Below, in pieces: positions 17,754 through 40,017 of a DNA stretch of 64,000 bases. Origin of the DNA: Candidatus Binatia bacterium. Its GTDB lineage: Bacteria; Desulfobacterota; Binatia; Bin18. Position 1 is the stretch's first letter; each line of letters opens with the position of its first letter. The stretch lies in assembly GCA_965231765.1 (NCBI GenBank), contig OZ246887.1, positions 5,203,823 through 5,267,822 of the forward strand, in the 5' to 3' direction. A program made the position numbers and the translations under genes. The notes below the pieces were generated by a model. That model did not search any database. It was not told the DNA's origin and saw only the letters and a list, made by a program, of their open reading frames with translations.

Positions 17754-18218
17754 TTACCGAGCCTCAGTCTGTGCTGCCTGTTTTTGAGACGCGACATACG
17801 CTGCCATTAAGCCTGGGATATCCACCGGAGACTCCGTGTCACGGATTTTACCACCGGGTCCAAGAATGCGGTCTGAACCACCCAAGGACAAAACCATATA
17901 TAAACCGCCTAATAAACCCCGTGTTTTGATTGAGGCGATAGCATCTTCCTGGATTTCTATGCCGTCGTGGACACTCAATGTCACCCGTGCCCGATCGTTG
18001 ATGCGTTGAATGAAATCCACCCGACCGACCTCGACCCCAGCAATCTCGACCACTGAGCCTGGTTCTAGTCCGCTTGCGTTTATGAAATCCGCTTGCAGGG
18101 TGTACTGCTGGCCCCACTGAAGATGTGTTTCGCCTAACACGCTGAACAGGTAGGCGAACGCCAGCCCGCCCAAGAGCAAGAAGCCAACCACACTGGCACT
18201 GATTCTGAATGTCTGCAT
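17754..18218 (-). CDS. MlaD/Mce-domain protein
   Basis: An N-terminal TM helix is followed by the Mce core QYTLQADFINASGLEPGSVVEIAGVEVGRVDFI. The start is taken at internal Met MQTFRISAS; the upstream part of the ORF has no domain support. Confidence 0.55.
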   Translation of the reverse strand: MQTFRISASVVGFLLLGGLAFAYLFSVLGETHLQWGQQYTLQADFINASGLEPGSVVEIAGVEVGRVDFIQRINDRARVTLSVHDGIEIQEDAIASIKTRGLLGGLYMVLSLGGSDRILGPGGKIRDTESPVDIPGLMAAYVASQKQAAQTEAR

Positions 18219-18574
18219 GCAGGCCAAGTCTAGCAGGCAGGCGAAATAAGGCCAATACGGCAAATGACGAATTATGAACGCTGAATGATGAATAGGGAAA
18301 TAAAAAAGGCTAGAGAACGGTTTGGCTGTTCTCAAGTTCCCTCTCCCGCAGGGTGAGGGTGGTACACAGCTTATGAGATCCGAAAACCACCCTAGGGGAG
18401 CGGATCTTCAGTCTGTGCAGGATGTGGATTGTGGGTCATGATGATATTGGCTTGGCTCTCTACAGTCGCGGTTCCACACTCTGCATTGTGTAAAGCAACT
18501 GATACGGAGCGTCACACAGTGACTTGCGCCGGATCGGGTTTCTTCATACAACCACGGAAGGAGGGGAACGACAG

Positions 18575-19504
18575 ATGGAGGGAAGACTGGGAGCCGGAAG
18601 CCGAAGATTTCTGGCGCGTCTGATCGCCTGTCTGGCTTGCGGTGCTGGGCTAAGCGGCCTGATACCGTACGCTTGTGCCGAAGAAGATCCGACTGCGACA
18701 GATCCCATAGCACGTGGCCAGTATGTGTTTGCCTTAGCCGGTGGCTGTGGCTGCCATACCGCGGCTGATGGCCAGGTGAATGCTGGGGGCCGGCCGCTCA
18801 GCACCCCGTATGGCACGTTTTATGGTACAAATATTACGCCTGACTCGACGCATGGCATAGGCAGCTGGACAGATCGTCAGATCATTGACGCGATTCGCTT
18901 GGGCGTCCGACCTGATGGCTCAGTGATGAGTCCGGTGATGCCATATCCTGCCTTGAGCGGGATGAGTGATGAAGATGTGGCGGCGTTGGTCGTCTATCTG
19001 CGCAGTTTACCAGCTGTTGCGCAGGAAAATCAGCCGCATCGTCTTTCGCTGCCATTTGCCAGTATGGCGATGAAAGTGTGGTACTGGCTGTTCTTTGAGC
19101 CTGTTGAGGCTCCCGCTCGTGCACCACAACAGGGGCTGGCGCGAGGGGCATATATCAGTGAGCATGTCGCCCACTGCCAGGAGTGTCATACGCCGCGTAC
19201 ACTCGTTGGAACGCTGGACCGGTCTCGGTATTTGGCTGGTAACCCAGACGGCATTGATGGGGAGATCGCGCCGAATATTACGCCTGATCCCAAGACCGGT
19301 ATTGGCGAGTGGAGTGAAGGTGAAATGATTACCCTGGTACGGACTGGATTTCTGCCGAATTTTGACAATGTACAAGGGCTTATGGCGCTCGTGATTGAAG
19401 GGATCCCGGAAGGAGGGTACAAAGATATGAGTGACGCAGACGTCCAGGCGGTTGCGCAGTATTTCAGAAGTGTACCGGCTGTGGAACAGAAGATTGGACG
19501 TTAA
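18575..19504 (+). CDS. diheme c-type cytochrome, Tat/Sec-exported
   Basis: Two CxxCH motifs (CGCHT and CQECHT), each in a ~110-aa c-type domain. The N-terminus has a twin-arginine-like SRRFLARL plus a hydrophobic stretch. A GGAAGGAGGGG RBS precedes ATG 18575. Confidence 0.75.
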   Translation: MEGRLGAGSRRFLARLIACLACGAGLSGLIPYACAEEDPTATDPIARGQYVFALAGGCGCHTAADGQVNAGGRPLSTPYGTFYGTNITPDSTHGIGSWTDRQIIDAIRLGVRPDGSVMSPVMPYPALSGMSDEDVAALVVYLRSLPAVAQENQPHRLSLPFASMAMKVWYWLFFEPVEAPARAPQQGLARGAYISEHVAHCQECHTPRTLVGTLDRSRYLAGNPDGIDGEIAPNITPDPKTGIGEWSEGEMITLVRTGFLPNFDNVQGLMALVIEGIPEGGYKDMSDADVQAVAQYFRSVPAVEQKIGR

Positions 19505-19634
19505 GACGTTAAGCTGTTGAGGAAACGAGAGAGGCAGCCGAGCCAACCGTCTCGTAACTTGGTGACTCGAAACGTGTTTTAAGCATGGGCTGTAATAGAA
19601 TCACATTGGAAAAGTCGGCATAGGAGGGAAGAGA

Positions 19635-20111
19635 ATGAAGTGGATGATTTTTGCACTCGTGGCGGTGGCAGTTGCTTTTGGTGCCGAGTGGAGTGGCGCG
19701 GACGGAGAGGAGCATAGTCATAGTGTGTCCAACCCGGATGACCCAATTGCCGTCCGGATGTATCTGATGGAGAATGTTGGCGCGAATGCCAAAGCGCTCA
19801 AAGGTAAGCTTGATGCGGGAAAGATCAAAGATGCTGCGCTGAATGCTCAGGCGATCGCTTTGCATGCGACCCAGATTCCAGTTTTATTCCCTGAAGGCAG
19901 CACATCCGAGACCTCGCGTGCCTTGCCTGAGATCTGGCAGAAATGGGACGATTTTGTGCAAAGCTCACATGCTTTACGCGATACCGCACAGGCGCTTGGA
20001 CATGCCGCTGCTGAGGACAAAGCGGACGAAGCTAAGGCCAAGCTCGGAGAGGTTTTTGGCACCTGCAAAGGCTGTCATGATAGCTTTCGCAAACCGGAAG
20101 AGAAGTCTTAG
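19635..20111 (+). CDS. cytochrome c' / class II (four-helix-bundle) c-type cytochrome
   Basis: Signal peptide, predominantly helical sequence, and a single C-terminal CKGCH heme-binding motif, as in cytochromes c'/c556. Confidence 0.65.
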   Translation: MKWMIFALVAVAVAFGAEWSGADGEEHSHSVSNPDDPIAVRMYLMENVGANAKALKGKLDAGKIKDAALNAQAIALHATQIPVLFPEGSTSETSRALPEIWQKWDDFVQSSHALRDTAQALGHAAAEDKADEAKAKLGEVFGTCKGCHDSFRKPEEKS

Positions 20112-20321: not shown

Positions 20322-21623
20322 GTGCCGGGTCCTGTCTCATTCCAGTCCCTCTCCAGCCGTGAGGCTGTCTTAAGCAGTGCCGAAAATTTTGTTCTCTATC
20401 TCTTGCTGGAAGCCAAGACGCAAGCAGAAGGAGGAGGGGGCGTCAGACTGCCCTTAAACCTAGGTGTTGTACTCGACCGGAGTGGCTCGATGTACGACGA
20501 AAAGCGGCTGGATTATGTCATCGAAGCCGTGAACTACCTGGTCGATAGTCTGGGGCCAGAAGATCGTGTCTCAATTGTGGCATTTGCCGATAGTGCGGCC
20601 GTTGTTGCCACCGCAGATCAAGTTCAGAGCGATAAAAGCCGGGTCAAACGGGCGATGGACGATATCGATCTGTTAGAAATTGGCGGTGGCACCCAGATGG
20701 CACTCGGCATGCAAGCCGCTCTGAGCGAGGTTGAAAAAAATCACTCAGGCAACTATCTGAACCGCATCTTGTTGCTGACCGATGGCCAAACCTACGAAGA
20801 GCGCAAATGTTTGGAAATTGCGCGTCAGCAGCGCGAGCGGGTTTCCTTTAGCACGCTCGGGGTTGGCATCGAGTTTAATGAAAAGCTGCTGATGGAGATT
20901 GCTGAAGAGGGGGGGGCCAATTACCACTTTATTGGCGATCCCTCGACCATCCCAGGGATTTTTTCCAGCGAACTGCAAGGCCTGCGCAATGTCGCCCTCA
21001 CCAACGCCCGGATCGAAGTCCAGCTGAGTGCTGGGGTCCAAGTCCGAGAGGCCTTCCGCGCTAGCCCGCAAATCTATCCGGTCAAAGACGCCAGCCCAGA
21101 TGCTAATCGGGTTGTCTCTATCCCGCTCGGAGATCTGGAATCTGGGGTGCCCAACTCCGCACTCTTAGTGTTGGTATTGCCGCCACGCCGGCCTGGGCGG
21201 GTCCGTCTGGCCCAATCGCAGTTGTGCTACGATACCACAGATGCGCGCGATCTACGCGAGAAGGCAGAATCGGTTATCACCTATACGCTTGACCGCGGCT
21301 CAGTTGGTAAGGCAAACGGCTATGTCATGAATCTGGTCGATCAGGTCAGTGTTGCCAAGCTGCAGAATCAGGCTGAGGCTGCCATTTCAGCTGGCAATAT
21401 GGACAAAGCAACCCGCTTGCTTGGTAACGCCATTTCCGGCACCCAGCGTCTGGGCAACTCCAAGGCCACTCAAGCCCTAGAATCATTGCAGAGTGAAGTC
21501 AAAAAAACACAAAGCCTGGCCAGCCGAGCCGCCAAAACACAACTGCTCACGGCTCAGGCCTCGTTGCGTAAGACCCAACTGCTTGATCCTGATAGTGTGA
21601 AAGATGCCCTGCGGGATGATTAA
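20322..21623 (+). CDS. cytoplasmic von Willebrand factor A (vWA) domain protein
   Basis: MIDAS motif VVLDRSGSMYD, then SIVAFADSA and LLTDGQ. No signal peptide. The C-terminal ~200 aa are of unknown function. Confidence 0.75.
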   Translation: MPGPVSFQSLSSREAVLSSAENFVLYLLLEAKTQAEGGGGVRLPLNLGVVLDRSGSMYDEKRLDYVIEAVNYLVDSLGPEDRVSIVAFADSAAVVATADQVQSDKSRVKRAMDDIDLLEIGGGTQMALGMQAALSEVEKNHSGNYLNRILLLTDGQTYEERKCLEIARQQRERVSFSTLGVGIEFNEKLLMEIAEEGGANYHFIGDPSTIPGIFSSELQGLRNVALTNARIEVQLSAGVQVREAFRASPQIYPVKDASPDANRVVSIPLGDLESGVPNSALLVLVLPPRRPGRVRLAQSQLCYDTTDARDLREKAESVITYTLDRGSVGKANGYVMNLVDQVSVAKLQNQAEAAISAGNMDKATRLLGNAISGTQRLGNSKATQALESLQSEVKKTQSLASRAAKTQLLTAQASLRKTQLLDPDSVKDALRDD

Positions 21624-21668
21624 AAGAAGTAGTGAGGACTGAGAACTTATGTGTAAGGAGGCCTAGGT

Positions 21669-22343
21669 ATGATCCGCTGTGCCGAGTGCGACGTAGAAAA
21701 CATGGATGGGGTCGAGTATTGTGATGGCTGTGGCCACAAGCTTGAAGCCGTCGCTGATGGTGCTGAAGCAGTCCCGGTTGCAACTGAAGAAGCACCTGTA
21801 GACGGAGCAGCTACGACTGAAGTGAGGGACAGTGTAGACGAGGCCCCAGCCGCAGCTGAGGCTGTTCAAGAGGTGCCAGAAGCTGCTGAAGAAGCACCAG
21901 CTGTTGAGCCCATTGTCGAAGAGCCCATTGTCGAAGAGCCTATTGTCGAAGAGCCTGCACCGGTCAGTGCTCCTGCGCCGGAGCCAGCAGCCCCACCCGT
22001 AGCTGCTGCAGCTGGCCAGACCGCTAAGCTGACTGTTATGCGGGGCGGCACAATTGGCAAAGAGTTTCCGCTGCAAGCTGGAGATAATCTCATCGGACGT
22101 TGGGACCCGGACTCCGGATCTTTCCCGGAAGTCGATTTAGAAACCGACGATACCGAAGCCCGTATTTCACGCAAACATGCCCTCATTAAATTCGGAGATA
22201 CAATAACGATTGAGGACATTGGCAGTCTGAATGGCACGTTTGTGAATAGAGGCCAGCGTCTTGAGCCTGGTTCTCCTGCCACGTTGAAAGACGGGGATGA
22301 GATCATTATTGGCAAAACGTTCTTCAAAGTTGCTATTGCCTAA
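21669..22343 (+). CDS. zinc-ribbon + acidic Pro/Glu-rich linker + FHA domain protein
   Basis: N-terminal CAECDV...CDGCGH. Tandem EPIVEEPIVEEPIVEEP from three 15-bp DNA repeats. C-terminal FHA (LIGRWD...ARISRKHALI...NGTFVN). Confidence 0.75.
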   Translation: MIRCAECDVENMDGVEYCDGCGHKLEAVADGAEAVPVATEEAPVDGAATTEVRDSVDEAPAAAEAVQEVPEAAEEAPAVEPIVEEPIVEEPIVEEPAPVSAPAPEPAAPPVAAAAGQTAKLTVMRGGTIGKEFPLQAGDNLIGRWDPDSGSFPEVDLETDDTEARISRKHALIKFGDTITIEDIGSLNGTFVNRGQRLEPGSPATLKDGDEIIIGKTFFKVAIA

Positions 22344-22391
22344 GACCGAGGACTACCTGAGTTGCTGAGTTGCTGAATCTACTGGTGATAC

Positions 22392-24116
22392 ATGACCGCT
22401 ACCCTTCCTTCGATTCCTGCCCTGGACACGGATATTGGGGCGTGTCCACAGTGTGGTGAGGACAATCCGCCTGAAGAGACTTTCTGCCTGTCGTGTGGTG
22501 TCGCGCTTGACGAAGAGAGCGAAACGACGCTCGATACGCTCAATCACAGCGAAGCCCTTTCTCCTCTGTCGGTCGGGGACGTGGTTGCCGAGCGTTGGAT
22601 TATTGAATCTGTTCGAACACATGGCGATGAGAATCGCTACCAGGCACGCTCGCAGGGAGAGGATGCGGCTCGGGTTATACTGCGCGAACGGGCGAGTGAG
22701 AATGCCGAGTCCTTGTTGGCACTTGAGGCGCGAACGACAAGATTGTCAGATGCTCCCCATCCCGCTTTACTCATCCCTGAGCCGAGCGTCGCATATGAGG
22801 GACGCGTCTATGTCGCTTTTCCCCATATTGCAGGCATGCATCTGGCCGACCGCATCGGACTCACCTCAGAACGGGAAGCTGTCGGCTGGGGCGTGCAGCT
22901 GTGTCAGATTCTCGGCTTTTTGCACCGGCATGACATGGTGTGTTTAGAATTGCCGCCCGAAGGCGTGATTTTGGATAAAACGGGCCGACTCCGGCTCGCT
23001 CAATTTGAAACCTTAACGGAAAAAGGAGCCCAGCACGAACCGCTGTTCCTGTCCGATGGTTACAGCGCTCCTGAGCTATATAAATCGGGCGAGTTGCACG
23101 AGACTGCCGATGTTTTTGCCATTGGTGCTTTGCTGTACTCTCTTGTTGTTGGTCTGCGCCTGCCGACAGAAAGCTGGGTGGTCCAGCCCGAGCCACCACT
23201 TTTTTACCCAGAAAAAGTCTTGTCACCCGATTTAGAACGTGTTTTGCGTCAGGCGCTTGCCTTTGAGGCTGAAGATCGGCATCAGACCGTTGGCGAACTC
23301 AAATCAGCCTTGCTGGAACTGACACACGAGACTCGTATCCGTTCTGCTTGGCGGACTGATGTTGGCCAGTGGCGCGATCACAACGAAGATGCTGTTCTGG
23401 TCAAAGAGGTTGGCCAAGGGACGATCGACGGCAACACCTCTCGTGGGCTGTATGTTGTGGCTGACGGCATGGGCGGTGCGGAAGCTGGCGAAATTGCCAG
23501 TGAGATCAGCATCACGGTTGTCGCCGAACATATTGAGCAAGCGTGGTCTCAAGATCGGTCGGATTCGGATAATGTCGAGCGGGACGATGCGGCTTGGGAA
23601 GTCTGTTTGCGAGAAGCCGTTGAGGCGGCCAATACCGCAATTGTGGGCTATGCCACAGCGCATCCTGAAGCGGAAGGCATGGGCTCCACTATTGTGGCAG
23701 TCCTACTCACCGAACACAGCCAGATATTGGCCTGGGTCGGAGATAGCCGGATCTACCTCTTAGAAGGTGGACAGTTGAGTCAGTTGTCACGCGATCACTC
23801 TCTGGTTGAGCGTTTGGTCGAAATCGGCCAACTGACTCCTGAAGAGGCGCGCACTCACGAGCACCGGAATGTCCTCATTCGTTCCCTTGGCAGCAAGGCG
23901 CAGGTGACAGTCGATACGCTGACCCGTCCCTTCAAACGCGGCGGCCGCCTACTCTTGTGTAGCGACGGTCTCACAAGTCATGTGGAGGATCCGGCGCTGG
24001 CAGACATTCTCAGTCGGCATCGAGAACCCAGAGATGCGGCGTTGGAGTTGGTGGTGGCGGCGAATACCGGTGGAGGGAGCGATAACGTCTCGGTGATTGT
24101 CGTTTTTAACGAATAG
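22392..24116 (+). CDS. zinc-ribbon / degenerate kinase-like domain / PP2C Ser-Thr phosphatase fusion
   Basis: N-terminal CPQCG...CLSCG. The central kinase-like fold has no GxGxxG, has HRHDMVCLELPPEGV in place of HRDLKPxN and has no DFG. C-terminal PP2C (DHNEDAVL, VVADGMGGAEAGEIAS, LLCSDGLTSHV). Confidence 0.75.
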   Translation: MTATLPSIPALDTDIGACPQCGEDNPPEETFCLSCGVALDEESETTLDTLNHSEALSPLSVGDVVAERWIIESVRTHGDENRYQARSQGEDAARVILRERASENAESLLALEARTTRLSDAPHPALLIPEPSVAYEGRVYVAFPHIAGMHLADRIGLTSEREAVGWGVQLCQILGFLHRHDMVCLELPPEGVILDKTGRLRLAQFETLTEKGAQHEPLFLSDGYSAPELYKSGELHETADVFAIGALLYSLVVGLRLPTESWVVQPEPPLFYPEKVLSPDLERVLRQALAFEAEDRHQTVGELKSALLELTHETRIRSAWRTDVGQWRDHNEDAVLVKEVGQGTIDGNTSRGLYVVADGMGGAEAGEIASEISITVVAEHIEQAWSQDRSDSDNVERDDAAWEVCLREAVEAANTAIVGYATAHPEAEGMGSTIVAVLLTEHSQILAWVGDSRIYLLEGGQLSQLSRDHSLVERLVEIGQLTPEEARTHEHRNVLIRSLGSKAQVTVDTLTRPFKRGGRLLLCSDGLTSHVEDPALADILSRHREPRDAALELVVAANTGGGSDNVSVIVVFNE

Positions 24117-24131
24117 TGAGAACGTTTCCCA

Positions 24132-26660
24132 TTGATGTCCCGCAATGAAAGTGGCCAACTTGAGCCCGGAAGTCTCCTTGCTGGGCGGTACCGCGTTGAG
24201 CGCTTTCTGGCTGGCGGCGGCATGGGTGTGGTCTATATTGGGACCGATCAGCGTCTGGCTGAGCGCCAGTGTGCGATTAAAGAAATTTTTGATCGCTTCA
24301 CCACCCCTGAAGAGCGAGCCCAGGCGATAGAATATTTCCACCGCGAAGCCGACACACTGTCGCAGCTCAACCATCCCGCCATTCCCGCCATTTTTGACCG
24401 TTTTGGTGAGGGCAACTGCCATTACCTAGTCATGGATTTCATTGAGGGCAGGAATCTTGAAGAAGTGTTAGTTGAACAAGAGGGACCCTTGCCTGAGAGC
24501 CGGGTCGTTGAGATTGCTCGTGAGCTGTGCGATGTGCTCAGCTATCTGCACAGTTTTGACCCGCCTGTTATCTACCGCGACATGAAGCCCGGCAATGTGA
24601 TTGTGAAGCCCGACGGCCATGTGGCTTTGATTGACTTCGGTATTGCTCGCATCTTTTCGCCGCAAGGGAAAGCGACGCTGATCGGCACGCCCGGTTTTGC
24701 TCCGCCTGAACAGTACGCTGGGAAAGTTGATCAACGCTCCGATATCTACAGCTTAGCTGCTAGCTTGCATTACATGGTCACCGGGCGAGATCCGGAAAAG
24801 CACCCGCCTTTCTCGTGTCCGCCCGTCCTGTCTGAAAAGCCCGACGTTTCGCCATTTTTAGCCCAAGCCGTAGATAAGGCGCTCGCGTATAAGGTAGGAG
24901 AGCGTCCATTTAGCGCCGAAGAATTCAAGGAAATGTTTCTGTATGGACGTGGTCTGAGCGCGACAGCTCCCTCGTCTAGTGCCAAGGCGGCAACCCAGCC
25001 GCTTGAACCTTTGGAGGAAATTGCGGAGGCTGCTGCAGAAGCTGAAGTATTTGCGCCAGCCCCAAACCTTCGCCGAAAACGACGCTGGACCAGACGTATT
25101 GCGGCTTTGCTCTTTATTGGACTCCTGGCGAGTAGTGCCTATGGGCTGTACACCAATCCAGAAGTCCTGCCCGCAGCGTTTGAAGGGAATGCTATGGAAC
25201 GTGTCGGCGAACAGATTCCCTGGCAGAAAATTGAAGCCTGGCTGCCAGAACCAGGCCAAGTCTGGCTGCGGGAATTTGTGGCAGACTTGCCCTGGGAACG
25301 CGAAAAGCGACTGCGGGCCTTACGCGCAGACCCGGTCGAGTTAGTATCGCTCAAAATCTTCAATACCTCACGGGATGGAACTCCGGTTACGGAGCCCCAA
25401 GAAAAATACAGCGTTGGACAAGTCAAATATCTGACCTGGGAAGTGGTCCTCAAAAACCGTTTAGCAGGCATCGAAGGAATACACTACCAACTGGAAGGCC
25501 GATTTTTTGATCCGGAAGGTGGCTTAGCTGGAAAAAGCAAAGCGGGGCGTTATGTGCGGCCTGAGGAAGAGCAGCTGGAGTTCCGTGGGATTACGCTGTT
25601 AGAAGGACTCAGAGAGCGAGCGAAAGGCGATTACCAGCTTGACGTGTACCTGGGCGATACAAAGCTGGTCGATCAGAAGCTGCTCATTGAGGCCGAACCT
25701 ACACTCGTTGCGAAAAAAGATGCTCCCTCAGCAAAAGAGACCAGAATCGCCACGGCTCCGCCTGTCCTGCCCGGTCCCTCTGCAACGGCGATTGCGGCGG
25801 CAGAGGCCGAGCGCAAGCGACGGGCCGGGGATGCCAAACGCGTGGCCTTAATTCAGGAACGGAGTAAAAAGCCGCTCGAAATTGTGAGAGTCAGATTTAT
25901 CAACACGGCCAAGAATGGCAAACGTCTGTCAGAGCCGAGCAAGAGTTTTGCCGCCTCAAAGATCCGTTTTATGGCCTGGGAAGCTGAGTTCAAGAACCGA
26001 CTCCATAGCTTGACACCTGCCTACCATCGGGTCGAGGCGACCTATTATGCCCCGAATGGCCAACCCTTGGGCACAGTTCAGGATGGCAAAGAGGTGAAGG
26101 TCAACAGCAAACGGACAACCTTCACCGGCCGGATTGGGAATGCCAGCGGCGGGGCATTTATACCAGGAAAGTATCGGGTTGATTTTTATGTGAATGGCTG
26201 GCCGCTGTCGTCCGAAGAGTTTATCGTACAGGACGATCGGAAGGGAATCCAAGTCGTGGACCGTGATGAGCAGCCTTGGAGCGGCCTTGCAGGGGGGGGG
26301 CCAGGAAGACAAGCTTCCACCCCTGAACGTCCCGGTATTGGCCCTGCATTGCGTCACCACACTGGCAGTCTGCTCGGTTTGGTTTCTGGGCGCGAGGTGC
26401 CCCTTGAGATCACCTTCCGTCCTCAGCGCAACGGTTCCTTACGCGGGAGGCTCATCATTCACGAGCCGGGCTATGGGGTTGCACCATTGGAAGGCCAGGT
26501 GCAGGGGAGTCAGATTGAATTTCGGAGTCCACTCGGCCGCGATACCTATTATTTCAAAGGCTGGCAAGAAGGCGACCGCCTGACGGGAACGTACCGAGTC
26601 TCCCCGACGCGCAAGGATGGCCGCTGGTCGGTGCGTATCAGTGAGCGGCCAGCCTCCTGA
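24132..26660 (+). CDS. receptor-type Ser/Thr protein kinase with single TM and duplicated extracytoplasmic domain
   Basis: GGGMGVVYIG...AIKEI...VIYRDMKPGNVIV...DFGIAR...GTPGFAPPE is a Hanks-type kinase. A TM helix (IAALLFIGLLASSAYGLY) lies ~aa 320. Two ~120-aa repeats follow (KIFNTSRDGTPV... and RFINTAKNGKRL...). Confidence 0.85.
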   Translation: MMSRNESGQLEPGSLLAGRYRVERFLAGGGMGVVYIGTDQRLAERQCAIKEIFDRFTTPEERAQAIEYFHREADTLSQLNHPAIPAIFDRFGEGNCHYLVMDFIEGRNLEEVLVEQEGPLPESRVVEIARELCDVLSYLHSFDPPVIYRDMKPGNVIVKPDGHVALIDFGIARIFSPQGKATLIGTPGFAPPEQYAGKVDQRSDIYSLAASLHYMVTGRDPEKHPPFSCPPVLSEKPDVSPFLAQAVDKALAYKVGERPFSAEEFKEMFLYGRGLSATAPSSSAKAATQPLEPLEEIAEAAAEAEVFAPAPNLRRKRRWTRRIAALLFIGLLASSAYGLYTNPEVLPAAFEGNAMERVGEQIPWQKIEAWLPEPGQVWLREFVADLPWEREKRLRALRADPVELVSLKIFNTSRDGTPVTEPQEKYSVGQVKYLTWEVVLKNRLAGIEGIHYQLEGRFFDPEGGLAGKSKAGRYVRPEEEQLEFRGITLLEGLRERAKGDYQLDVYLGDTKLVDQKLLIEAEPTLVAKKDAPSAKETRIATAPPVLPGPSATAIAAAEAERKRRAGDAKRVALIQERSKKPLEIVRVRFINTAKNGKRLSEPSKSFAASKIRFMAWEAEFKNRLHSLTPAYHRVEATYYAPNGQPLGTVQDGKEVKVNSKRTTFTGRIGNASGGAFIPGKYRVDFYVNGWPLSSEEFIVQDDRKGIQVVDRDEQPWSGLAGGGPGRQASTPERPGIGPALRHHTGSLLGLVSGREVPLEITFRPQRNGSLRGRLIIHEPGYGVAPLEGQVQGSQIEFRSPLGRDTYYFKGWQEGDRLTGTYRVSPTRKDGRWSVRISERPAS

Positions 26661-26686
26661 CATGAAATTTTTGAGCTGACAACTGA

Positions 26687-27559
26687 GTGACTATGGAACT
26701 CTCACGCGAGCGACTCATTTTGTATACTGGGGCAGGATTTCTGGGTGGGCTGGCCGGTTGGGCAGCCGCAGACCCATTGGCAAGTCTCGGCAATGTCTAC
26801 GTTCGGGCTCTTGCCCTGGGAGCTGTCATCGGGGTGTTTATTGGTGCGTTTATTGCCTCTATTGAGGGGCTCAGTCGCGGCCACAAAAACCAGATCATGC
26901 AGGGTCTGCAACTCGGTGGGCTAGCTGGTTTGATTGGTGGTGGGACTGGGCTGTTGATGGGCGAACTGGTGTTTGGCCTATTCGGAGGACTGGGCGGCCG
27001 GATTATTGGCTGGGGCATATTTGGTTTGATTGCCGGACTGGGCGTTGGCTGGGTTGGCCGTTCGGTTGCCCGGATGCGGAATGGCATGATTGGTGGAGCA
27101 ATCGGCGGAGCGACTGGTGGAGCACTGTACCAGATTGTGACAGGCTTATTACCTCAGACCGCAGGGCGTGGCCTTGCGCTTGCGCTGCTCGGGGCGATGA
27201 TTGGTTTGTGGATTGGCCTGGTCGGAGAAATCCTCAAGCGAGGCTGGTTTATGGTCATTCGTTCCCAGAGCCGGAATGCCAGAGAAGGCAAAGAATATCC
27301 ACTGGTGAAGGCCAAAACCACGATCGGTCGGGCTGAGGAGAGTGATGTCGGGCTGTTCGGGGATCGCTCAATCTCGGATATGCACGCCGTTGTTGAGCGT
27401 CAGAAAGGGAAATTCCTGCTGGCTCGTGGGCAAGGCATAGTCAAGGTCAATCAGTCGTCAGTGACCCAGCCGGTCCAGCTCAAGAATGGAGACCGAGTTG
27501 AGGTCGGGGGAACACTCCTCCTGTTTCGTGATCGCGCGGCTGTCCCTGAAGAGGCATAA
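26687..27559 (+). CDS. polytopic glycine-zipper membrane protein with C-terminal FHA domain
   Basis: Four or five Gly-rich TM segments (GxxxG repeats). The C-terminal FHA reads TIGRAEESDVGLFGDRSISDMHAVV...NGDRVEVGGTLLLF. Confidence 0.7.
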   Translation: MTMELSRERLILYTGAGFLGGLAGWAAADPLASLGNVYVRALALGAVIGVFIGAFIASIEGLSRGHKNQIMQGLQLGGLAGLIGGGTGLLMGELVFGLFGGLGGRIIGWGIFGLIAGLGVGWVGRSVARMRNGMIGGAIGGATGGALYQIVTGLLPQTAGRGLALALLGAMIGLWIGLVGEILKRGWFMVIRSQSRNAREGKEYPLVKAKTTIGRAEESDVGLFGDRSISDMHAVVERQKGKFLLARGQGIVKVNQSSVTQPVQLKNGDRVEVGGTLLLFRDRAAVPEEA

Positions 27560-27605
27560 GAAGCATACGGGACCGAGACGTCAACACACAGAAAAGTGAA
27601 GCTGT

Positions 27606-29168
27606 ATGGGAAAGCATAACTATTTTTATCAATATTGCATTGCCAGTCTCTCGTTTGTCGCGTGCGTGGCCGTCCAGACGTTGGCCTGGGCGGTAGACAC
27701 TGCGGTGGTGTCCCTGACCAATCCACAGCTGGAGACTTTTTCAAATGGCGGTGCAGTTGGCTTGTATTTTAGTGTGACCGACACCCGCGGACAGCCCGTC
27801 GGACAGCTCAGCCTAGACCAGGTGCAAATTCTCGAAGACGGCCAGATAGCAAAAGTCATTGATTTCCGAGGTGAAGAACAGGGACGACCGGTCGATATCG
27901 TGGTTGTCTTTGATATCACCGAGAGTATGGGACCCTTTATCGACGGCATGAAAGAGGCGACAAATGCCTTTGCCGATGGGCTATCGAAAGCCAACCGCGA
28001 TTATCGTTTGGGCCTGGTGACCTTTGAGGATTATGTCACTCGTGATGAGAAGGTGTTTACCCGGAGCGCGACAGAATTCAAAAGCTGGATTGGAGCCTTG
28101 CAGGCAGTTGGCGGCGGGGACATTCCAGAGAACTCGCTCGACGCGTTGATGATCGCCAGCCGTTTTCCTTTTCGGCCAGATGCCCAGGCCGTCGTCATCC
28201 TCATCACCGATGCGCCCAATCATTCTAAAGGGGATGGCTCGGAGAAGAATAATCCGTATGGACATGAGATTAGCCAGGTTTCCGCAGGCGAAGTGGTAGA
28301 GGAACTGAAACGGGCGAATCTGAGCGTGTTTGCAATCACCCCGCCTCCGTTTGTGGCACCCGACCTGCACAGAATGGCCAAAGAAACCGGAGGCAAGCAC
28401 TACAATATTGTGAGTGAAGGCCGCCGTTTTCCTGAGCTGATCGGCAAAATTGGCCGCTCGCTGGCATCGCAGTATTTCCTGACGTATGAGAGCCCACGGC
28501 CGGTCGAAGATGGGACCAGACGGGAAGTCGTACTCAAAATCAGCCATCCAAACGGTGCCGGTGAGGTACGCAGTAAGTACCAGCTGCGCGGAATTGGCGG
28601 CGGTGCCCGAGCTGTCGTGTCGAGCTCTGTTGCTGGCGTTGCTCCAGCTGAAAATATGCTCACCTACAGCTGGTGGAATATGCTTGTGCCGCTCTTGTCC
28701 GGAGCGGGACTCCTCCTGTTGGCGCGGGTGCGGCTGAGTGAACTACCGGCTGATGTCATGAGACGTCTCAAAACAGCTTCGAGCGCAGTCAGTGCTGCTG
28801 CCGGTACAGCCGCCAGCGCGGCTGCCGGCACCGTGGCTGCCGTTAAACCAGATAAACCTGCCGCCTATGCCCGCTTAATCCGTCAAACGCCACTTGACGA
28901 GGTACCGCGCGAGATTGCCTTAACCCGCGAGGAGTTTGTGATTGGGCGTGGTGAAGAGTGTGATATCGTCATTCCCCACACCTCAATTTCGCGTGAGCAT
29001 GCGCGTTTAAAAAAGCTCAAACCTGGCTTTGTGTTGTTTGACCTGAAGAGCAGAAACGGAACCTTTGTGAATGGCCGGAAAGTGGTTGAGAACCTGCTCA
29101 AAGAAGGCATGACGGTCAAGATTGGCGATATTGAGTTTGTCTTTTATGGGGCGAACCCATCGGCCTAA
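27606..29168 (+). CDS. signal peptide / vWA domain / TM / cytoplasmic FHA domain protein
   Basis: Signal peptide. vWA MIDAS VVFDITESM. TM helix WWNMLVPLLSGAGLLLLARV. C-terminal FHA FVIGRGEECDIVIPHTSISREHARL...NGTFVNG. Confidence 0.75.
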   Translation: MGKHNYFYQYCIASLSFVACVAVQTLAWAVDTAVVSLTNPQLETFSNGGAVGLYFSVTDTRGQPVGQLSLDQVQILEDGQIAKVIDFRGEEQGRPVDIVVVFDITESMGPFIDGMKEATNAFADGLSKANRDYRLGLVTFEDYVTRDEKVFTRSATEFKSWIGALQAVGGGDIPENSLDALMIASRFPFRPDAQAVVILITDAPNHSKGDGSEKNNPYGHEISQVSAGEVVEELKRANLSVFAITPPPFVAPDLHRMAKETGGKHYNIVSEGRRFPELIGKIGRSLASQYFLTYESPRPVEDGTRREVVLKISHPNGAGEVRSKYQLRGIGGGARAVVSSSVAGVAPAENMLTYSWWNMLVPLLSGAGLLLLARVRLSELPADVMRRLKTASSAVSAAAGTAASAAAGTVAAVKPDKPAAYARLIRQTPLDEVPREIALTREEFVIGRGEECDIVIPHTSISREHARLKKLKPGFVLFDLKSRNGTFVNGRKVVENLLKEGMTVKIGDIEFVFYGANPSA

Positions 29169-29200: not shown

Positions 29201-31276
29201 TTACTGGTACAGCTCTTCACTCTGAACGCCATTATCTGGCACACGAATCTTGGGATATAATGACGGTATACCGTTGCGGCCGAGGAGCAGAAAATCGACC
29301 GGTACAAAAGGCATTGGGACTTCCATTCCGACAAAGGCGCTGCGTTGATCTTTACCAAAGGCCAAACGTGTGCCCAGCACTTCTTTGGGCAGCGTCCCCC
29401 GAACATCAATGCTTGTCCCAGACGTACTTCCGGTCAGATAGGGTAGGGCCCGCCACCCTGCGGAAGTGTGTTTTTCCTGGCTGCTCTTGAGCGTAATATC
29501 GGCCTCTTCTGCCCCGAGAGCCAAACGGGCGAGTTCACGATCGCCATCTTGGCTGGCTCGTTCAAAACCTTTCTCCCGGAAACGCCGCCAAAATTGCTTC
29601 CAGGCGTTTGTTGGCACGCCAAAGACCCTGATACGTGGACCATCATCGGTCTGGATCAGGAGAGAAATCTCTTGATCTGCCAGGATGGTAATCCCGCCCT
29701 CGGCCAGCTCAACATTGTCCCAGTCCCCGTCGAGCAATTCGGTTTTGAGGCTCAAGCCCCGAGGGCCGATCAGGTCGGGATTTTCTTTGAGAAAGGCTTT
29801 GCTGAGTTGGATGCCCTGCGCTTCCCAGCGACTTAAGGCCAGGAGTTGTGGGGCTGCTTCTTGAGCCGCATCGGTATTTGGATAGCGCTCAACCAAGGTC
29901 CGCAGGGCTGTGATTTTCTCCGAGCGATGGGGCGATTGTTTTGCCTGTTCGAGCAAACCTTCGGCCGCCTGTTCTTCGAGCTCTGGGATTTTGTCTTCCT
30001 GTCCAGCGAGTTTATAGTAGTTGATAGCTTGATCGATTTTGCCTTCGCGCTGATACGATTTGGCTAACAGGGGATATACTTCGGGCGTACGTTTTTCGGG
30101 TGGCGTTTTGTGCAGATAGGTCTTGGCTTCCGTAATCACCTCTTCGTGTGATACCGGGTTACTCGTCATCACTTGCCATAATTTACCGCCGAGCTGTACC
30201 GCAGACAGGGCACCAAAGGTTGCGGCCCCGACCAAGCCTTCAGTCGCCACTTGGACTCCAGCCACCACAAAATTATCTTTGACAAACGAGCTGCCAGGCA
30301 TGACATATTTGAAGGTCTCGACTTGATGGTCCCACTCTGCCTGTTTGACTCGCTCGTAGGGGTCCTCCGGTTGTTGTTCTCGGAGCGGTTGGAGCTGCTG
30401 CAAACGGGCTTCGACTTGACGGATACCGGCGTGCGCGTCAGCCGATTCTTCGTCTATCATCAACGCCAGCTGATAGTGAAAATTTGCTCTCCAATAGTCC
30501 TGCTGTGCAAAGGCGGCTTTGGCCTGGGCAAGTTCATCTTTGAGGAGGGCGTTTGTGCGTCGAACTTCGAGTGCCTGGGCTTTTTCCCGCACCTGTGCGG
30601 CACGTTGATCCTGTGGAGCACGTCGCAGAAATTCTTGATACAGCACGAGTGCCTTCCGTTCGCGCGGGGTGGGGGAATCGTCAGCATTGCGCAAAGACGA
30701 GATCACGCCTTGGGCGGAATACGGACTCGGGCTGCGTGGGGTGCCTAAAAACAGACTGCCGACGTCAAATGTTGACAGCACCCAGTTAAAAACGCGGGCG
30801 ACACGTCCGCGTTTTTCCTCTGCGAGCAGTGTATCGGCTCGGACAAGGAGTTCATCCGGCCCAATGTCGAGATCCGCAGCAGTCGGCTGGTCGTGGTTCG
30901 GCTGGCTGTTTTGGGATTCTTGCGGAGCGGCAAGTGCGTGCACATAGGCGGTTAAGCCAGTTGGTTTCTCGCCCTGAAGAATGAGTTGGGCATCATACTC
31001 AGACAGCTCACGAGCATGGGCTTTGACGGCCTCTGGATCTTGCAAATAGGCATCAACAATGGCATTGGCGACTTGTTTGCCGATTGCATCCGGAAAATAA
31101 CGGTCAGCTGGGATGGGTGCTATAAACGGATTATAGCGGGGGAATACATCCGTCAGTTTGGAGAGCAGTGGGTCGGAAAATTCCTGGCCAAACTCTGGGT
31201 CATAGTCCTGAGCGTGGACTGGAGGCAGCAGCAGGACACACAAAAGAATGCCGATAAGGTATTGTGCTCGTTGCAT
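29201..31276 (-). CDS. hypothetical secreted protein with TPR-like helical region
   Basis: 690-aa ORF with an N-terminal signal peptide (MQRAQYLIGILLCVLLLPPVHAQ). No catalytic motif is recognised. The start is taken at the Met before the signal peptide. Confidence 0.5.
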   Translation of the reverse strand: MQRAQYLIGILLCVLLLPPVHAQDYDPEFGQEFSDPLLSKLTDVFPRYNPFIAPIPADRYFPDAIGKQVANAIVDAYLQDPEAVKAHARELSEYDAQLILQGEKPTGLTAYVHALAAPQESQNSQPNHDQPTAADLDIGPDELLVRADTLLAEEKRGRVARVFNWVLSTFDVGSLFLGTPRSPSPYSAQGVISSLRNADDSPTPRERKALVLYQEFLRRAPQDQRAAQVREKAQALEVRRTNALLKDELAQAKAAFAQQDYWRANFHYQLALMIDEESADAHAGIRQVEARLQQLQPLREQQPEDPYERVKQAEWDHQVETFKYVMPGSSFVKDNFVVAGVQVATEGLVGAATFGALSAVQLGGKLWQVMTSNPVSHEEVITEAKTYLHKTPPEKRTPEVYPLLAKSYQREGKIDQAINYYKLAGQEDKIPELEEQAAEGLLEQAKQSPHRSEKITALRTLVERYPNTDAAQEAAPQLLALSRWEAQGIQLSKAFLKENPDLIGPRGLSLKTELLDGDWDNVELAEGGITILADQEISLLIQTDDGPRIRVFGVPTNAWKQFWRRFREKGFERASQDGDRELARLALGAEEADITLKSSQEKHTSAGWRALPYLTGSTSGTSIDVRGTLPKEVLGTRLAFGKDQRSAFVGMEVPMPFVPVDFLLLGRNGIPSLYPKIRVPDNGVQSEELYQ

Positions 31277-31335
31277 AGAGTCAGATCCCCGAGCGTGCAT
31301 GAAACGTAAAAAGACCTGAAAACTTCATCAAAGCT

Positions 31336-32349
31336 TCATCTTCCCAAGCGTCCGATTTTGGCGATATAGGCTTCCAGCGCTTGGAGTTTACCTTTGGCTT
31401 CGAGTTTTTCGATCACGCCGTCTTCTTGGGTGACTTGGGCGTACTGATTCAGGGCGGCTTGGCCTAATTCTTCAAAAACAGTTGGGTTAAAGCTGAGGCT
31501 TTCCGGGTCGTTTTGAGACACATATTCCTCGGCCAAACTGCTATAAAAATCGCCCAATTCTATCCGGTATTGGTAGCGATTTTTGCTCTCTGTATGGGTG
31601 TCGAGCAGTTGCCGGTAAGCCACGATGACGCTCTCATTGCCGTCTTGGATTTGATACCGATTGAGGGTCAGGAAGGTCACTTTGGCCATGTCTAAGCGTT
31701 CGGCTTCTTCAAGGGCGAGCGATTCGTACGGCGTGCCTGCCAATTCTTGGCTGAGGGCACGCCAGGCAACGGCTTGATCGTCTAGGGCTTTGAGGTATTC
31801 GACTGGGGTGCTGGCTGAGAACTGACGCTCGGTCAGCTCTTTGAATTTGGTCAGCGCGGCAACTGATTTTGTGGCTTCGTCCTTTAGACGGTGGTTGGTT
31901 TGGCTGACACGTTCATACTCCTCAAAGGCTTCTTGGTAAGCGTGCAGTCCCTCATAGGCGCGTCCACGCGTATATGCGATCAGGACAGGATACGCGCCTG
32001 GGTGTTTGGACTGATAGTCTTGGAGTCGTTTCAGGGTCGCTTTATGCGCATTTGCGCCAGTCACGTCCTCGGGCAAAGGAAAGCGGTAGGTATCCTTGGT
32101 CGCAACGCGCTGAAATTCGGCGGTGACTTTGAGCAGATCTTCTTCGGTTTCATACTGCGGGTTGCTGTCTGCCGCAGTGTTTTTGGACAGACCTGGGATC
32201 ATGTCGCGTATCTGTGAAGTGGTTGAGGAAACGCGTGGGCCAGTTGCGGTTGGTTGTGAACGAAAAAGGGAACACGCTGATAGCAGACAGGCGGAGAGGA
32301 GAAGAACGATGAGAGGCAGGAACGAAAAGGGCGTGTTCTGCATCTGCAT
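31336..32349 (-). CDS. hypothetical lipoprotein (TPR-like)
   Basis: Lipobox-like LLSAC|S after a hydrophobic N-terminus. Helical repeat-like body. The start is ambiguous between Met codons at 32367, 32349 and 32343. Confidence 0.5.
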   Translation of the reverse strand: MQMQNTPFSFLPLIVLLLSACLLSACSLFRSQPTATGPRVSSTTSQIRDMIPGLSKNTAADSNPQYETEEDLLKVTAEFQRVATKDTYRFPLPEDVTGANAHKATLKRLQDYQSKHPGAYPVLIAYTRGRAYEGLHAYQEAFEEYERVSQTNHRLKDEATKSVAALTKFKELTERQFSASTPVEYLKALDDQAVAWRALSQELAGTPYESLALEEAERLDMAKVTFLTLNRYQIQDGNESVIVAYRQLLDTHTESKNRYQYRIELGDFYSSLAEEYVSQNDPESLSFNPTVFEELGQAALNQYAQVTQEDGVIEKLEAKGKLQALEAYIAKIGRLGR

Positions 32350-32506
32350 AATCCCACGATATGACATAGCTGATCGGGCTCAGGCGTGCGTAATAGTACC
32401 CACCTTAATGTGAGCGAGACAGGGTGTCAAACCGGGTTTTTGGGGTTTCTTGGCTTGGGCTTGCCAGCAGTCATTACTTCCAGATAATATCCGACACGAT
32501 GCTAGT

Positions 32507-32591
32507 GCCGGGGTGGTGGAATTGGCAGACACACAGGACTTAAAATCCTGTGAGCTTTTTGCTCGTACGGGTTCAAGTCCCGTCCCCGGCA
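32507..32591 (+). tRNA. tRNA-Leu (anticodon UAA), type II with long variable arm
   Basis: Acceptor stem GCCGGGG/CCCCGGC with discriminator A. Anticodon stem CAGGA/TCCTG with loop CUUAAAA. Long variable arm GAGCTTTTTGCTC. T-arm GGGTTCAAGTCCC. Length 85 nt. Confidence 0.8.
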
Positions 32592-32986
32592 TAAGAAAAT
32601 TAACTACTTATGCCCCCTCTCAGCTGCGGAGGCGCGCGAAATTCCGGTCAAGGACACGATCCGAGTGTCGGCTGCACCCGGGACAGCGGAACGGCGCTGG
32701 GCGACCGCGACTTGGACACCACATGCTGCACGCTGAGGCAAACTCTGTGTGGCTCCGGGCCCGGACCGGGTTAGCGGACAGGCTCAAGCGCCAGGCCGAG
32801 GACTTTGCGTTTCATCTGCTGGTTGACTTGGAGGAAGCCCGGGCCGAGGGCCTGACCGACGTGGCTGTGATCGCGGAGCGCTATGGCGTCCCGCGTGAGA
32901 TGGTGCTGCTGGGGCGGGTGGCGTGAGAGAGAACACTCATACCCCACTTCACGCAGGAGCACGGATTACATAACGAGGAACCCTTA

Positions 32987-33850: not shown

Positions 33851-33934
33851 CGCGGTGTTTCATGTCGGCAAGGATGATCGGGTGCTCGGCCTTGTGGCTG
33901 GGCCGCTGACGGTGGGTAAGGAGAACGCATCACC

Positions 33935-34684: not shown

Positions 34685-34895
34685 GGAAAAGGACAGACCG
34701 GCCGACGATTCTTCAGTGCGGAGCTTGGGGGTGGGGCCGAACGGCTGCCAAGTCGCCTTCAAAAAGCGCAGCCGTCATTGCACCTCAATAATCACAAAAT
34801 TCTGGCTTGCCTCTTGCCACTCGACCGTCACTGTTGTGTCCGGCTCGGGGAAGTCAGGCAGATTGTACACGCCACTCGCACCTGTCAGACGAACT
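34671..34895. repeat. direct repeat copy A (~97% identical to 41870-42095)
   Basis: A ~225-bp block is almost identical to copy B, with about six mismatches. Weaker homology extends a further ~100 bp upstream into the Sel1 gene 3' end. Confidence 0.7.
34780..34895 (-). pseudogene. remnant 3' end of an LRR/PPC surface-protein gene (paralog of 41981..44773)
   Basis: The reverse strand encodes ...LTGASGVYNLPDFPEPDTTVTVEWQEASQNFVIIEVQ*, identical to the last 37 aa of the 930-aa LRR protein. It has no upstream coding continuation. Confidence 0.6.
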
Positions 34896-34899
34896 GCTG

Positions 34900-39940: not shown

Positions 39941-40017
39941 ACCCAGCCGCCGGTTTGGAGGGAACCCACTGTCAGTATTCCTCTCCAAACCTCAGTTAGT
40001 GACTATGGAGCAGCAGC

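Follow-up and report, generated by a model that had tools for sequence, protein, structure and literature searches.

The window analysed here is a 64-kb stretch (64,000 nucleotides; contig OZ246887.1, positions 5,203,823 to 5,267,822) of the genome of a Candidatus Binatia bacterium, and the system in question is a cluster of six genes, g1 to g6, which occupies positions 20322-29168 of the window and encodes proteins with vWA, FHA, PP2C phosphatase and Hanks-type kinase domains. The six open reading frames (ORFs) all lie on the plus strand, specify proteins of 433, 224, 574, 842, 290 and 520 amino acids (aa), and are separated, from g1 to g6, by 45, 48, 15, 26 and 46 bp; g1 starts with GTG, with a strong AAGGAGG just 5' of the start. 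Because the genes share one strand and are closely spaced, and because a consensus scan of the cluster found no promoter-like or terminator-like sites above the level of shuffled sequence, the six genes look like a single operon. An earlier note on this DNA, made from the sequence alone, had described six genes on one strand with short gaps, had given each a domain architecture, and had remarked that no type VI secretion system (T6SS) or cell-division genes adjoin them. The layout stands (gaps of 15-48 bp), all six architectures are supported by Pfam and NCBIfam, and T6SS, type III secretion system (T3SS), cell-division, rodA, pbpA and ftsW genes are missing from the entire 64-kb window. Structure models were built on database homologues of the cluster proteins, and the fold matches cited below are those of Foldseek against PDB.

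The first gene (20322-21623, plus strand; 433 aa) encodes a vWA protein (Pfam VWA, E = 1.7e-21) with no transmembrane segment, hydrophobic segment or signal peptide, predicted to be cytoplasmic. In its AlphaFold2 (AF2) model (predicted local distance difference test score 89.7; predicted TM-score 0.85), strands at residues 5-33 are followed by the vWA domain (45-222), a beta-sandwich (224-322), helices (333-416) and a short disordered tail. The vWA domain is inserted into the beta-sandwich, the first two strands of which are N-terminal to it, and a four-helix bundle follows. This is the tripartite fold of Sulfolobus ArnB, in which a vWA domain with an intact MIDAS (metal ion-dependent adhesion site) is combined with a beta-sandwich plus a bundle of four helices (PMC6509490, PMC12852372). 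The best Foldseek match of the g1 model is 4FX5, a vWA protein of Catenulispora (E = 1e-27, TM-score 0.77), followed by ArnB in the ArnAB complex (8S05, chains A and B; E = 1e-23) and by ArnE (vWA2), a paralogue of ArnB (5A8J; E = 2e-22). TM-scores of these top four matches range from 0.60 to 0.79, and the next match, ITIH1, is some nine orders of magnitude weaker in E, with Sec23/24 coming after it. The sequence search with phmmer against PDB likewise retrieved 5A8J (6e-10), 4FX5 (2e-9) and 8S05_A (2e-5). The MIDAS of g1 is intact (D52-x-S54-x-S56, T124, D154) and invariant in 27-32 aligned relatives, and g1 is the best-conserved protein of the cluster, with 75-81% identity in the most closely related loci (the window-type loci defined below) and 60% to Binatus. 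As modelled, g1 is an ArnB-type protein rather than a generic vWA protein.

The adjoining gene, 45 bp downstream, encodes g2 (21669-22343, plus strand; 224 aa), which begins with a zinc ribbon (C4-x2-C-x3-N-x6-C-x2-C21; weak Pfam zinc-ribbon matches), continues with an acidic linker rich in proline and glutamate, in which the EPIVE repeat corresponds to a 15-bp tandem repeat of 3.3 copies (nucleotides 21906-21955), and ends with an FHA domain (residues 145-215; Pfam FHA, E = 1e-14). Sulfolobus ArnA, the partner of ArnB, similarly consists of a RanBP2-type zinc finger and an FHA domain (PMC6509490, PMC12852372). The only PDB sequences that span both the zinc ribbon and the FHA domain of g2 (query residues 3-201) are ArnA (5A8I; E = 1.4e-4) and chain C of 8S05 (E = 2.8e-4); the zinc ribbon alone produced nothing significant against PDB. 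By its predicted zinc ribbon, acidic linker and FHA domain, g2 is an ArnA-like reader and, given the fold and sequence matches to the published Sulfolobus pair, g1 and g2 appear to constitute a bacterial ArnB/ArnA-like pair. The earlier note had listed the presence of two vWA proteins, and of zinc ribbons on both the FHA adaptor and the phosphatase, among the unusual features; the pair of a cytoplasmic vWA and a zinc-ribbon FHA protein corresponds to a module that has been characterised structurally and biochemically in Sulfolobus.

In the Sulfolobus pair, as long as ArnB is unphosphorylated, its sandwich and bundle are bound by the zinc finger of ArnA; once the Hanks kinase ArnC has phosphorylated threonines of the last ArnB helix pair, the bundle becomes looser and tight binding by the FHA domain follows (PMC6509490, PMC12852372). 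Candidate sites of the same kind are found in g1. Its last 79 residues, within the C-terminal helix bundle and tail (residues 333-433; 21318-21620, plus strand), contain six T-[Q/R]-x-[L/I/M] motifs, at T364, T374, T383, T396, T406 and T418 (contexts KATRLL, GTQRLG, KATQAL, KKTQSL, AKTQLL and RKTQLL), where 0.20 are expected from composition and none of 100,000 shuffled sequences reached six. The positions of the motifs are kept in the Methylomirabilota and Binatia orthologues, and similar motifs are present in the Chloroflexota orthologues; among the plasmid-borne homologues, that of Deinococcus has three tail motifs (MTQRL, MTQVL and KTQTL) and that of Nostoc has one. A word-indexed homologue search with the C-terminal half of g1 returned mainly fragments of close relatives, and an exhaustive HMMER search produced 178 representatives at E <= 1e-3, mostly of 410-470 aa and with an N-terminal vWA domain. 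Across 88 full-length members of the g1 family, motif density over the last 100 residues is 21.5 times that of the body of the protein, at least one tail motif being present in 78 of them, and the first g1 motif, A363-T364-x-x-L367, is nearly invariant (threonine in 28 of 32 relatives). Among the six proteins of the cluster, the motif is confined to the g1 tail and the cytoplasmic juxtamembrane segment of the g4 kinase, where it occurs as KAATQPLEP at T288 and as RRWTRRI at T320, adjoining the transmembrane helix; T-x-x-L in the T288 region is kept in all 15 of the g4 orthologues. For comparison, the ArnB phosphopeptides are RMELIETTRR and ISESIETTRR, then IGTVEQTR, with T-R-R-I at comparable positions of the bundle (PMC6509490, PMC12852372), so that T-[Q/R]-x-L here stands against E-T-T-R-R-I in ArnB. 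We regard the threonines of the g1 tail as candidate phospho-acceptor and FHA-docking sites; both these repeats and the T-x-x-L motif in the g4 juxtamembrane segment had escaped the earlier note. The g1 family search also brought up two giant proteins, P0326 and P0334 (3258 and 7585 aa), in which 10-13 copies of a domain matching the beta-sandwich of g1 stand in tandem; the matching part of the query, the C-terminal half of g1, is residues 43-116.

The putative writer, g4 (24132-26660, plus strand; 842 aa), is composed of a kinase domain (residues 20-268), the juxtamembrane A-T288-Q-P-L, a transmembrane helix (323-341) and approximately 500 residues outside the membrane, which comprise, in order, a helical segment, two beta-sandwiches (402-520 and 582-700), a Gly/Ser linker and an 8-stranded beta-barrel (742-835). 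The kinase domain keeps the glycine loop, the beta-3 lysine, Y-R-D-M-K-P-G-N and D-F-G, and by these motifs g4 is a catalytically intact Hanks receptor kinase. The two beta-sandwiches are homologous to each other (23% identity over 120 gap-free columns, E = 3e-19), in agreement with the duplicated extracytoplasmic domains that had been read from the sequence, and the C-terminal barrel is, as modelled, avidin-like. Identity of g4 is 57-69% in the window-type loci and 41% to Binatus. The mechanically called ORF starts at TTG 24132 (842 aa); database copies of the identical protein have 841 aa, which implies a start at the ATG one codon later (24135).

The putative eraser is g3 (22392-24116, plus strand; 574 aa), a fusion of a zinc ribbon (residues 18-35), a kinase-like domain (approximately 60-318; a weak Pkinase match in Pfam) and a PP2C domain (322-571) that passes the NCBIfam Stp1/IreP equivalog cut-off (233.4 bits against 230). 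In the kinase-like domain HRDLKPxN has become C-L-E-L-P-P-E-G, DFG has become Q-F-E and the glycine loop is lost; aligned with g4, the catalytic loop shows replacement of Asp by Glu, Lys by Pro and Asn by Gly, together with DFG to QFE. These substitutions are conserved across 13 orthologues (52-89% identity), and the equivalent domain is also degenerate in the proteins of Binatus and Sericytochromatia, which identifies g3 as a conserved pseudokinase, as had been suspected. All the PP2C metal-binding and catalytic motifs are invariant in the same 13 orthologues, so the phosphatase of g3, to judge from its motifs, is catalytically intact, whereas the kinase to which it is fused, along with a zinc ribbon, is dead. 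Only one hydrophobic stretch was flagged in g3; it falls within the kinase-like domain, and there is no credible transmembrane anchor. The zinc ribbons of g2 and g3 share the pattern C-x2-C-x3-N-x6-C-x2-C, the cysteines and the asparagine being invariant in the 13 g3 orthologues, so that zinc ribbons do sit on both the FHA adaptor and the phosphatase, as previously noted.

The last two genes encode membrane-anchored FHA proteins. The polytopic g5 (26687-27559, plus strand) has a glycine-rich membrane part (approximately residues 10-183, four to six helices) with no match to a Pfam family, followed by a cytoplasmic FHA domain (200-282; Pfam FHA 3.7e-9, Yop-YscD_cpl 1.6e-9); it is 77-81% identical in the window-type loci and 53% in Binatus, and no Binatia or Methylomirabilota locus that extends far enough lacks it. 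In g6 (27606-29168, plus strand), a signal peptide or anchor (residues 1-29, AWA|VD) precedes a periplasmic vWA domain (97-278) with the variant MIDAS D-I-T-E-S, a transmembrane helix (359-377), an Ala/Ser-rich linker and a cytoplasmic FHA domain (445-507), which supports the proposed architecture of an extracytoplasmic vWA domain tethered through the membrane to a cytoplasmic FHA domain. The FHA domains of g2, g5 and g6 all keep the phosphothreonine-binding GR and S-x-x-H residues. In four of the window-type loci (L002-L004 and L084), belonging to two lineages, g6 is fused in frame to the C-terminus of g5, and the g6 "signal peptide" there is an internal transmembrane segment directly after the g5 FHA domain. 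The fusion agrees with a topology in which the first FHA domain is inside, the vWA domain outside and the second FHA domain inside, and the occurrence of both as one polypeptide in some relatives argues for a joint function; from the sequences, then, g5 and g6 probably work together.

For the analysis of gene neighbourhoods, g3 homologues were placed on contigs and GTDB species genomes, and all ORFs of 85 loci were compared with the window proteins. Six window-type loci (L001-L004, L084 and L085), from metagenome-assembled genomes (MAGs) labelled Methylomirabilota and Binatia, have the six genes in the same order with 54-82% identity. Another 16 intact loci, which we denote Binatus-type (Binatus, Binataceae, and MAGs labelled delta-proteobacteria or Proteobacteria), carry g1, g2, an extra kinase-FHA fusion, a longer g3, g4 and g5, flanked by unrelated housekeeping genes. 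All the Binatus-type loci lack g6, which occurs in window-type loci only and, of the six genes that the earlier note had grouped together, is the one outside the conserved core; the order of g1 to g5 is kept in MAGs labelled Methylomirabilota and Binatia. The cluster is therefore syntenic across at least two phyla as labelled. The extra Binatus-type gene (L005-L020 and L024; e.g., 7547-9277 of L010) encodes a soluble active kinase with a C-terminal FHA domain, and the g3 orthologue in these clusters is longer by 90-165 aa. Farther afield, the loci of Roseiflexus and Chloroflexus contain two PP2C genes, a kinase and a g1-like vWA protein that includes the C-terminal half of g1, followed by an FHA protein where the locus extends far enough (L027 and L035). 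Loci of Sericytochromatia and Oscillatoriaceae encode a zinc-ribbon receptor kinase with a periplasmic-binding-protein sensor, a pseudokinase-PP2C and a zinc-ribbon FHA protein, and those of Gemmatimonadota have a different, FHA-kinase-PP2C-FHA cluster.

The tblastn search of plasmids with g1 detected two four-gene cassettes, one on a plasmid of Deinococcus sp. QL22 (order vWA, serine/threonine kinase (STK), FHA, PP2C) and one on a conjugative plasmid of Nostoc linckia NIES-25 (vWA, FHA, PP2C, STK, the order of the window). All four proteins of both cassettes are homologous to g1-g4 (pairwise BLASTP E-values of 1e-17 to 1e-38); against the QL22 cassette, identity is 30% for g1 (1e-32), 30% for g2 (5e-18), 29% for g3 (1e-26) and 35% for g4 (3e-38). 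In these cassettes the zinc ribbon is on the kinase and the FHA protein, not on the PP2C. Residues 17-307 of g3 align with the zinc-ribbon kinases of the Deinococcus and Nostoc cassettes, which suggests that g3 arose by fusion of a zinc-ribbon kinase, now inactive, to a PP2C. The Deinococcus and Nostoc PP2Cs themselves have long N-terminal extensions (L086, 10586-12544, and L087, 8910-10697), which align with the kinase C-lobe of g3 (163-320).

An operon of the same composition, DRA0331-0334 of Deinococcus radiodurans, has been studied: it encodes vWA, serine/threonine protein kinase, FHA and PP2C proteins, reportedly in the gene order of the QL22 cassette, and a 2026 preprint reports Mn-dependent PP2C activity and experimental kinase/FHA/PP2C antagonism, including that of the FHA protein and the phosphatase (bioRxiv 10.64898/2026.01.23.701218). 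The window cluster shares with cassettes of this type the four-gene composition of vWA, kinase, zinc-ribbon FHA and long PP2C, the homology having been assessed on the Deinococcus sp. QL22 proteins. The cassettes differ in having neither g5 nor g6 and a zinc ribbon on the kinase instead of the phosphatase, as well as in the C-terminal part of the kinase (TPR repeats in Nostoc; three C-terminal transmembrane helices reported for DRA0332); the related Roseiflexus and Chloroflexus cassette has, as stated above, a second PP2C gene. In DRA0334, the region upstream of the PP2C at a position comparable to the kinase-like region of g3 is annotated "KI-FHA" (bioRxiv 10.64898/2026.01.23.701218). Given the clearly kinase-like character of that region in g3, this annotation may deserve re-examination. 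The earlier note, which took the relay for uncharacterised, had missed that vWA, zinc-ribbon FHA, PP2C and STK genes occur together widely in bacteria and that one operon of this composition has been studied.

Collectively, these observations lead us to the view, to which we assign a probability of about 0.6, that the cluster encodes a self-contained, membrane-wired Ser/Thr phospho-switch centred on a bacterial ArnB/ArnA-type pair, with g4 as writer, g2, g5 and g6 as readers, and g3 resetting the system. From the folds, catalytic states, motifs, synteny and gene fusion described above we infer the following substrate relationships and docking contacts. An extracytoplasmic cue, received by the beta-sandwiches or the avidin-like barrel of g4, would activate the kinase. 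The kinase would then phosphorylate itself at the juxtamembrane T-x-x-L, and g1 at the T-[Q/R]-x-L threonines of helix bundle and tail; this phosphorylation would loosen the bundle, as in ArnB. The phosphothreonines would be read by the three FHA domains, soluble g2 being already tethered to g1 through its zinc ribbon, while the membrane-anchored g5 and g6 could bring the g1 scaffold to the membrane, where it would be coupled to the periplasmic vWA domain of g6 and the glycine-rich domain of g5. Finally, g3 would reset the switch, recruited by its zinc ribbon (the docking type of g2), by pairing of its pseudokinase with g4, or by both. The transmembrane phospho-relay proposed in the earlier note is, in this light, a reasonable reading of genes that are indeed co-conserved; the part of it that falls away is the novelty of the core, the g1/g2 pair and the four-gene cassette both being of kinds already known. 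It had also been stipulated that the idea would fail should the cluster turn out to be a well-characterised named system, and this is half the case: the core belongs to a named kind, and the membrane-wired bacterial version has not been characterised.

The resemblance to the motility-repression system of Sulfolobus acidocaldarius, which regulates archaellum expression (5A8I, 5A8J and 8S05; kinases ArnC and ArnD, phosphatase PP2A), thus lies in the adjacent genes for vWA-sandwich-bundle and zinc ribbon-linker-FHA proteins, in the threonine clusters of the C-terminal bundle and in a Hanks kinase as the writer, here a predicted one. The differences are substantial, in that the host is a bacterium, sequence identity is about 17% and the bundle cannot be aligned by sequence; one operon here encodes both kinase and phosphatase, and the latter is a PP2C with pseudokinase and zinc ribbon rather than PP2A; and two extra membrane FHA proteins and a periplasmic vWA domain are added. 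The host is, moreover, diderm (TamB, Omp85 and MlaD), and no archaellum or type IV pilus genes are present in the 64-kb window.

Several observations weigh against the switch built on an ArnB/ArnA-type pair. The g1 tail alone, in a sequence search of PDB, found no ArnB or ArnE chain and nothing else significant; at E <= 0.01 the Pfam matches of g1 are to vWA families alone, and it lacks the ArnB C-terminal domain signature (InterPro IPR040929, cited in PMC12852372). The likeness of its helix bundle to that of ArnB is accordingly structural only. In the AF2 model four of the six threonines lie inside confidently predicted helices, where they could be structural residues of a helix repeat, and freely accessible sites seem to be limited to T396, where a helix ends, and T418, in the flexible tail; by the precedent of ArnB, sites inside the bundle may be usable as phospho-sites. 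The FHA domain of g5 lacks the NG motif. Finally, the Sericytochromatia and Oscillatoriaceae loci contain no vWA gene within 10 kb, so that a zinc ribbon need not dock on a vWA scaffold; the idea of the zinc ribbon as a universal vWA-docking module is weakened by the Sericytochromatia loci in particular.

Other explanations of the cluster each have some evidence in their favour and more against them. The vWA, PP2C and STK combination recalls the TerY-P triads, in which the kinase carries a zinc ribbon and some of which act in defence (PMC11090510), and the cluster could accordingly be a conflict (anti-phage) threshold switch that, on infection, releases the glycine-zipper protein g5 as a membrane-damaging abortive-infection effector, the more so as glycine-zipper proteins have been discussed as effectors in systems of this type (PMC11090510), as the related four-gene cassettes are found on plasmids, including a conjugative one in Nostoc, and as an island with TIR, Abi_C and leucine-rich repeat (LRR) genes begins about 3 kb downstream of the cluster, at a tRNA-Leu gene. 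Both systems have vWA, PP2C and Hanks kinase together with a zinc ribbon on one enzyme, and both are predicted to be switches that depend on metal and phosphorylation. However, FHA readers are central here and absent there; the kinase is a transmembrane receptor whose catalytic domain is followed by a transmembrane helix and a beta-rich periplasmic region instead of the C-terminal zinc ribbon/OB fold of the TerY-P kinase, and the zinc ribbons are N-terminal on g2 and g3. The g1 protein scores 26.5 bits with Pfam vWA-TerF-like, below the 29.4 cut-off, matches no PADLOC family at E <= 0.001 and has the larger, tripartite ArnB fold. In PADLOC, g1, g2, g5 and g6 had no match, and the matches of g3 and g4 were confined to generic kinase and PP2C models; membership in a defence system was rejected on this ground, with no match to TerY. 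The cluster, furthermore, lies outside the tRNA-Leu island, and its place on the chromosome, beside MlaD and the cytochrome genes, does not change among relatives whose identity is only 54-81%; in Binatus it sits among housekeeping genes. This pattern points to vertical inheritance rather than to a mobile island. A role in conflict consequently seems improbable to us.

The same FHA, PP2C and Hanks-kinase triad is characteristic of envelope or cell-growth regulators of the FhaA/FhaB-PstP-PknA/B type and of the PpkA-PppA-Fha1 secretion switch, with which the cluster shares the logic of writer, eraser and FHA reader. Both use docking on pThr-x-x-hydrophobic sites in juxtamembrane segments or substrates. 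If the cluster were such a regulator, its vWA proteins would be incidental. PpkA of Pseudomonas aeruginosa has a vWA domain C-terminal to its kinase domain (PMC1262709), envelope genes are found nearby (MlaD upstream, TamA/TamB at 54-60 kb), and in NCBIfam the FHA domains partially match FhaB/FipA and TagH, and g4 partially matches PknB. These matches, though, are far below the cut-offs and cover single domains only, 183 bits against 450 for PknB_PASTA_kin, with the kinase domain alone covered, and 25-35 bits against 120 for VI_FHA. There is no PASTA domain in g4, the sensor of which has a different fold, no membrane anchor on the PP2C, unlike in PstP, and no cell-wall gene nearby nor any T6SS or T3SS gene in the window; unlike in PpkA, the vWA domains are on separate scaffold and reader proteins, and g1, the most conserved protein of the cluster, can hardly be incidental. 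We therefore consider a regulator of this kind rather unlikely. Still less can be said for a redox- or nitric oxide-linked sensory system in which control would run, in one direction or the other, between the kinase and FHA machinery and the two proteins encoded immediately upstream, a c-type cytochrome and cytochrome c'. These two genes, with MlaD, precede g1 in the window and in L001-L004 and L084 (49-75% identity), but none of the Binatus-type loci, and none of the cassettes of Deinococcus, Nostoc and Chloroflexota, has the cytochromes, a gap of 210 bp separates cytochrome c' from g1, and the shared order may reflect only common descent within one clade, making this link very improbable. 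As for what the switch itself might drive, an unlikely extension of it, which is still worth stating, is that g5 and g6 form a transmembrane output device consisting of a glycine-zipper pore or membrane-remodelling domain and a periplasmic MIDAS adhesin, set from inside by two FHA domains docking on multiply phosphorylated g1, driven by g4 and reset by g3, in the manner of integrin-like inside-out signalling or of a Sec23/24-like coat. The g1 model also matches the Sec23/24 COPII core (zinc finger, vWA trunk, beta-sandwich and helical domain) at a Foldseek E of about 1e-12, and the PDB title of 8S05 refers to an archaeal orthologue of the Sec23/24 core motif; yet the cluster has no gelsolin domain and no GTPase partner, and the resemblance is in the fold only.

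If the cluster is indeed a phospho-switch around a bacterial ArnB/ArnA-type pair, it bears on one of the few archaeal phospho-signalling modules that are understood structurally. The authors of the ArnAB study noted that bacterial structural relatives exist, and considered most of them unconnected with multi-site phosphorylation (PMC12852372). The locus and its relatives point against this view, because bacterial ArnB-like proteins often stand beside a zinc-ribbon FHA protein, a Hanks kinase and a PP2C and keep the threonine motif in the same helix bundle. With writer, eraser, reader and substrate all predictable from one operon, the model can be tested directly in vitro. The core is of a known kind, represented by archaeal ArnAB and by the bacterial four-gene cassette. 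To this the window version joins a phosphatase tethered to a pseudokinase and two FHA proteins of the membrane, and it could serve to reveal how a switch of this kind is linked across the inner membrane. Our literature search found nothing specific on a bacterial pseudokinase-PP2C fusion or on the six-gene architecture, and no description of a zinc ribbon-pseudokinase-PP2C eraser, of the g4 sensor architecture (two beta-sandwiches and an avidin-like barrel), of a glycine-rich transmembrane FHA protein such as g5, of a periplasmic vWA-transmembrane-FHA protein such as g6 or of their fusion, nor any that links the bacterial four-gene cassettes, conserved threonine motif included, to ArnAB. The hosts being uncultured, the immediate impact is moderate.

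Upstream of g1, within 17754-20111, lie MlaD (minus strand) and, directly before g1, the genes for the c-type cytochrome (18524-19504) and cytochrome c' (19635-20111); all three hold the same position in L001-L004 and L084 and are absent in the Binatus-type loci. Converging on the end of the cluster from the minus strand (29201-32367) are genes for a secreted protein of 699 aa, weakly TPR/YbgF-like, and for a lipoprotein of 343 aa. Homologues of the latter two (53-66% identity) are found at the same position in L001 and L085, where a toxin-antitoxin pair or a methyltransferase gene is inserted between them and g6. Because they are co-syntenic only within the window-type clade, neither the cytochromes nor the TPR protein and lipoprotein were counted as parts of the system.

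The tRNA-Leu(taa) gene at 32506-32592 marks the start of a likely variable or defence island (32506-49500), which contains a CAP12/Pycsar-type TIR protein (32987-33850), a Sel1-repeat protein (33935-34684), an Abi_C protein (40491-41306), an LRR protein of 930 aa (41981-44773, minus strand) and a pentapeptide-repeat protein of 445 aa (48011-49348, minus strand). The GC content reaches 61-64% over 42-50 kb, compared with about 54% elsewhere in the window.

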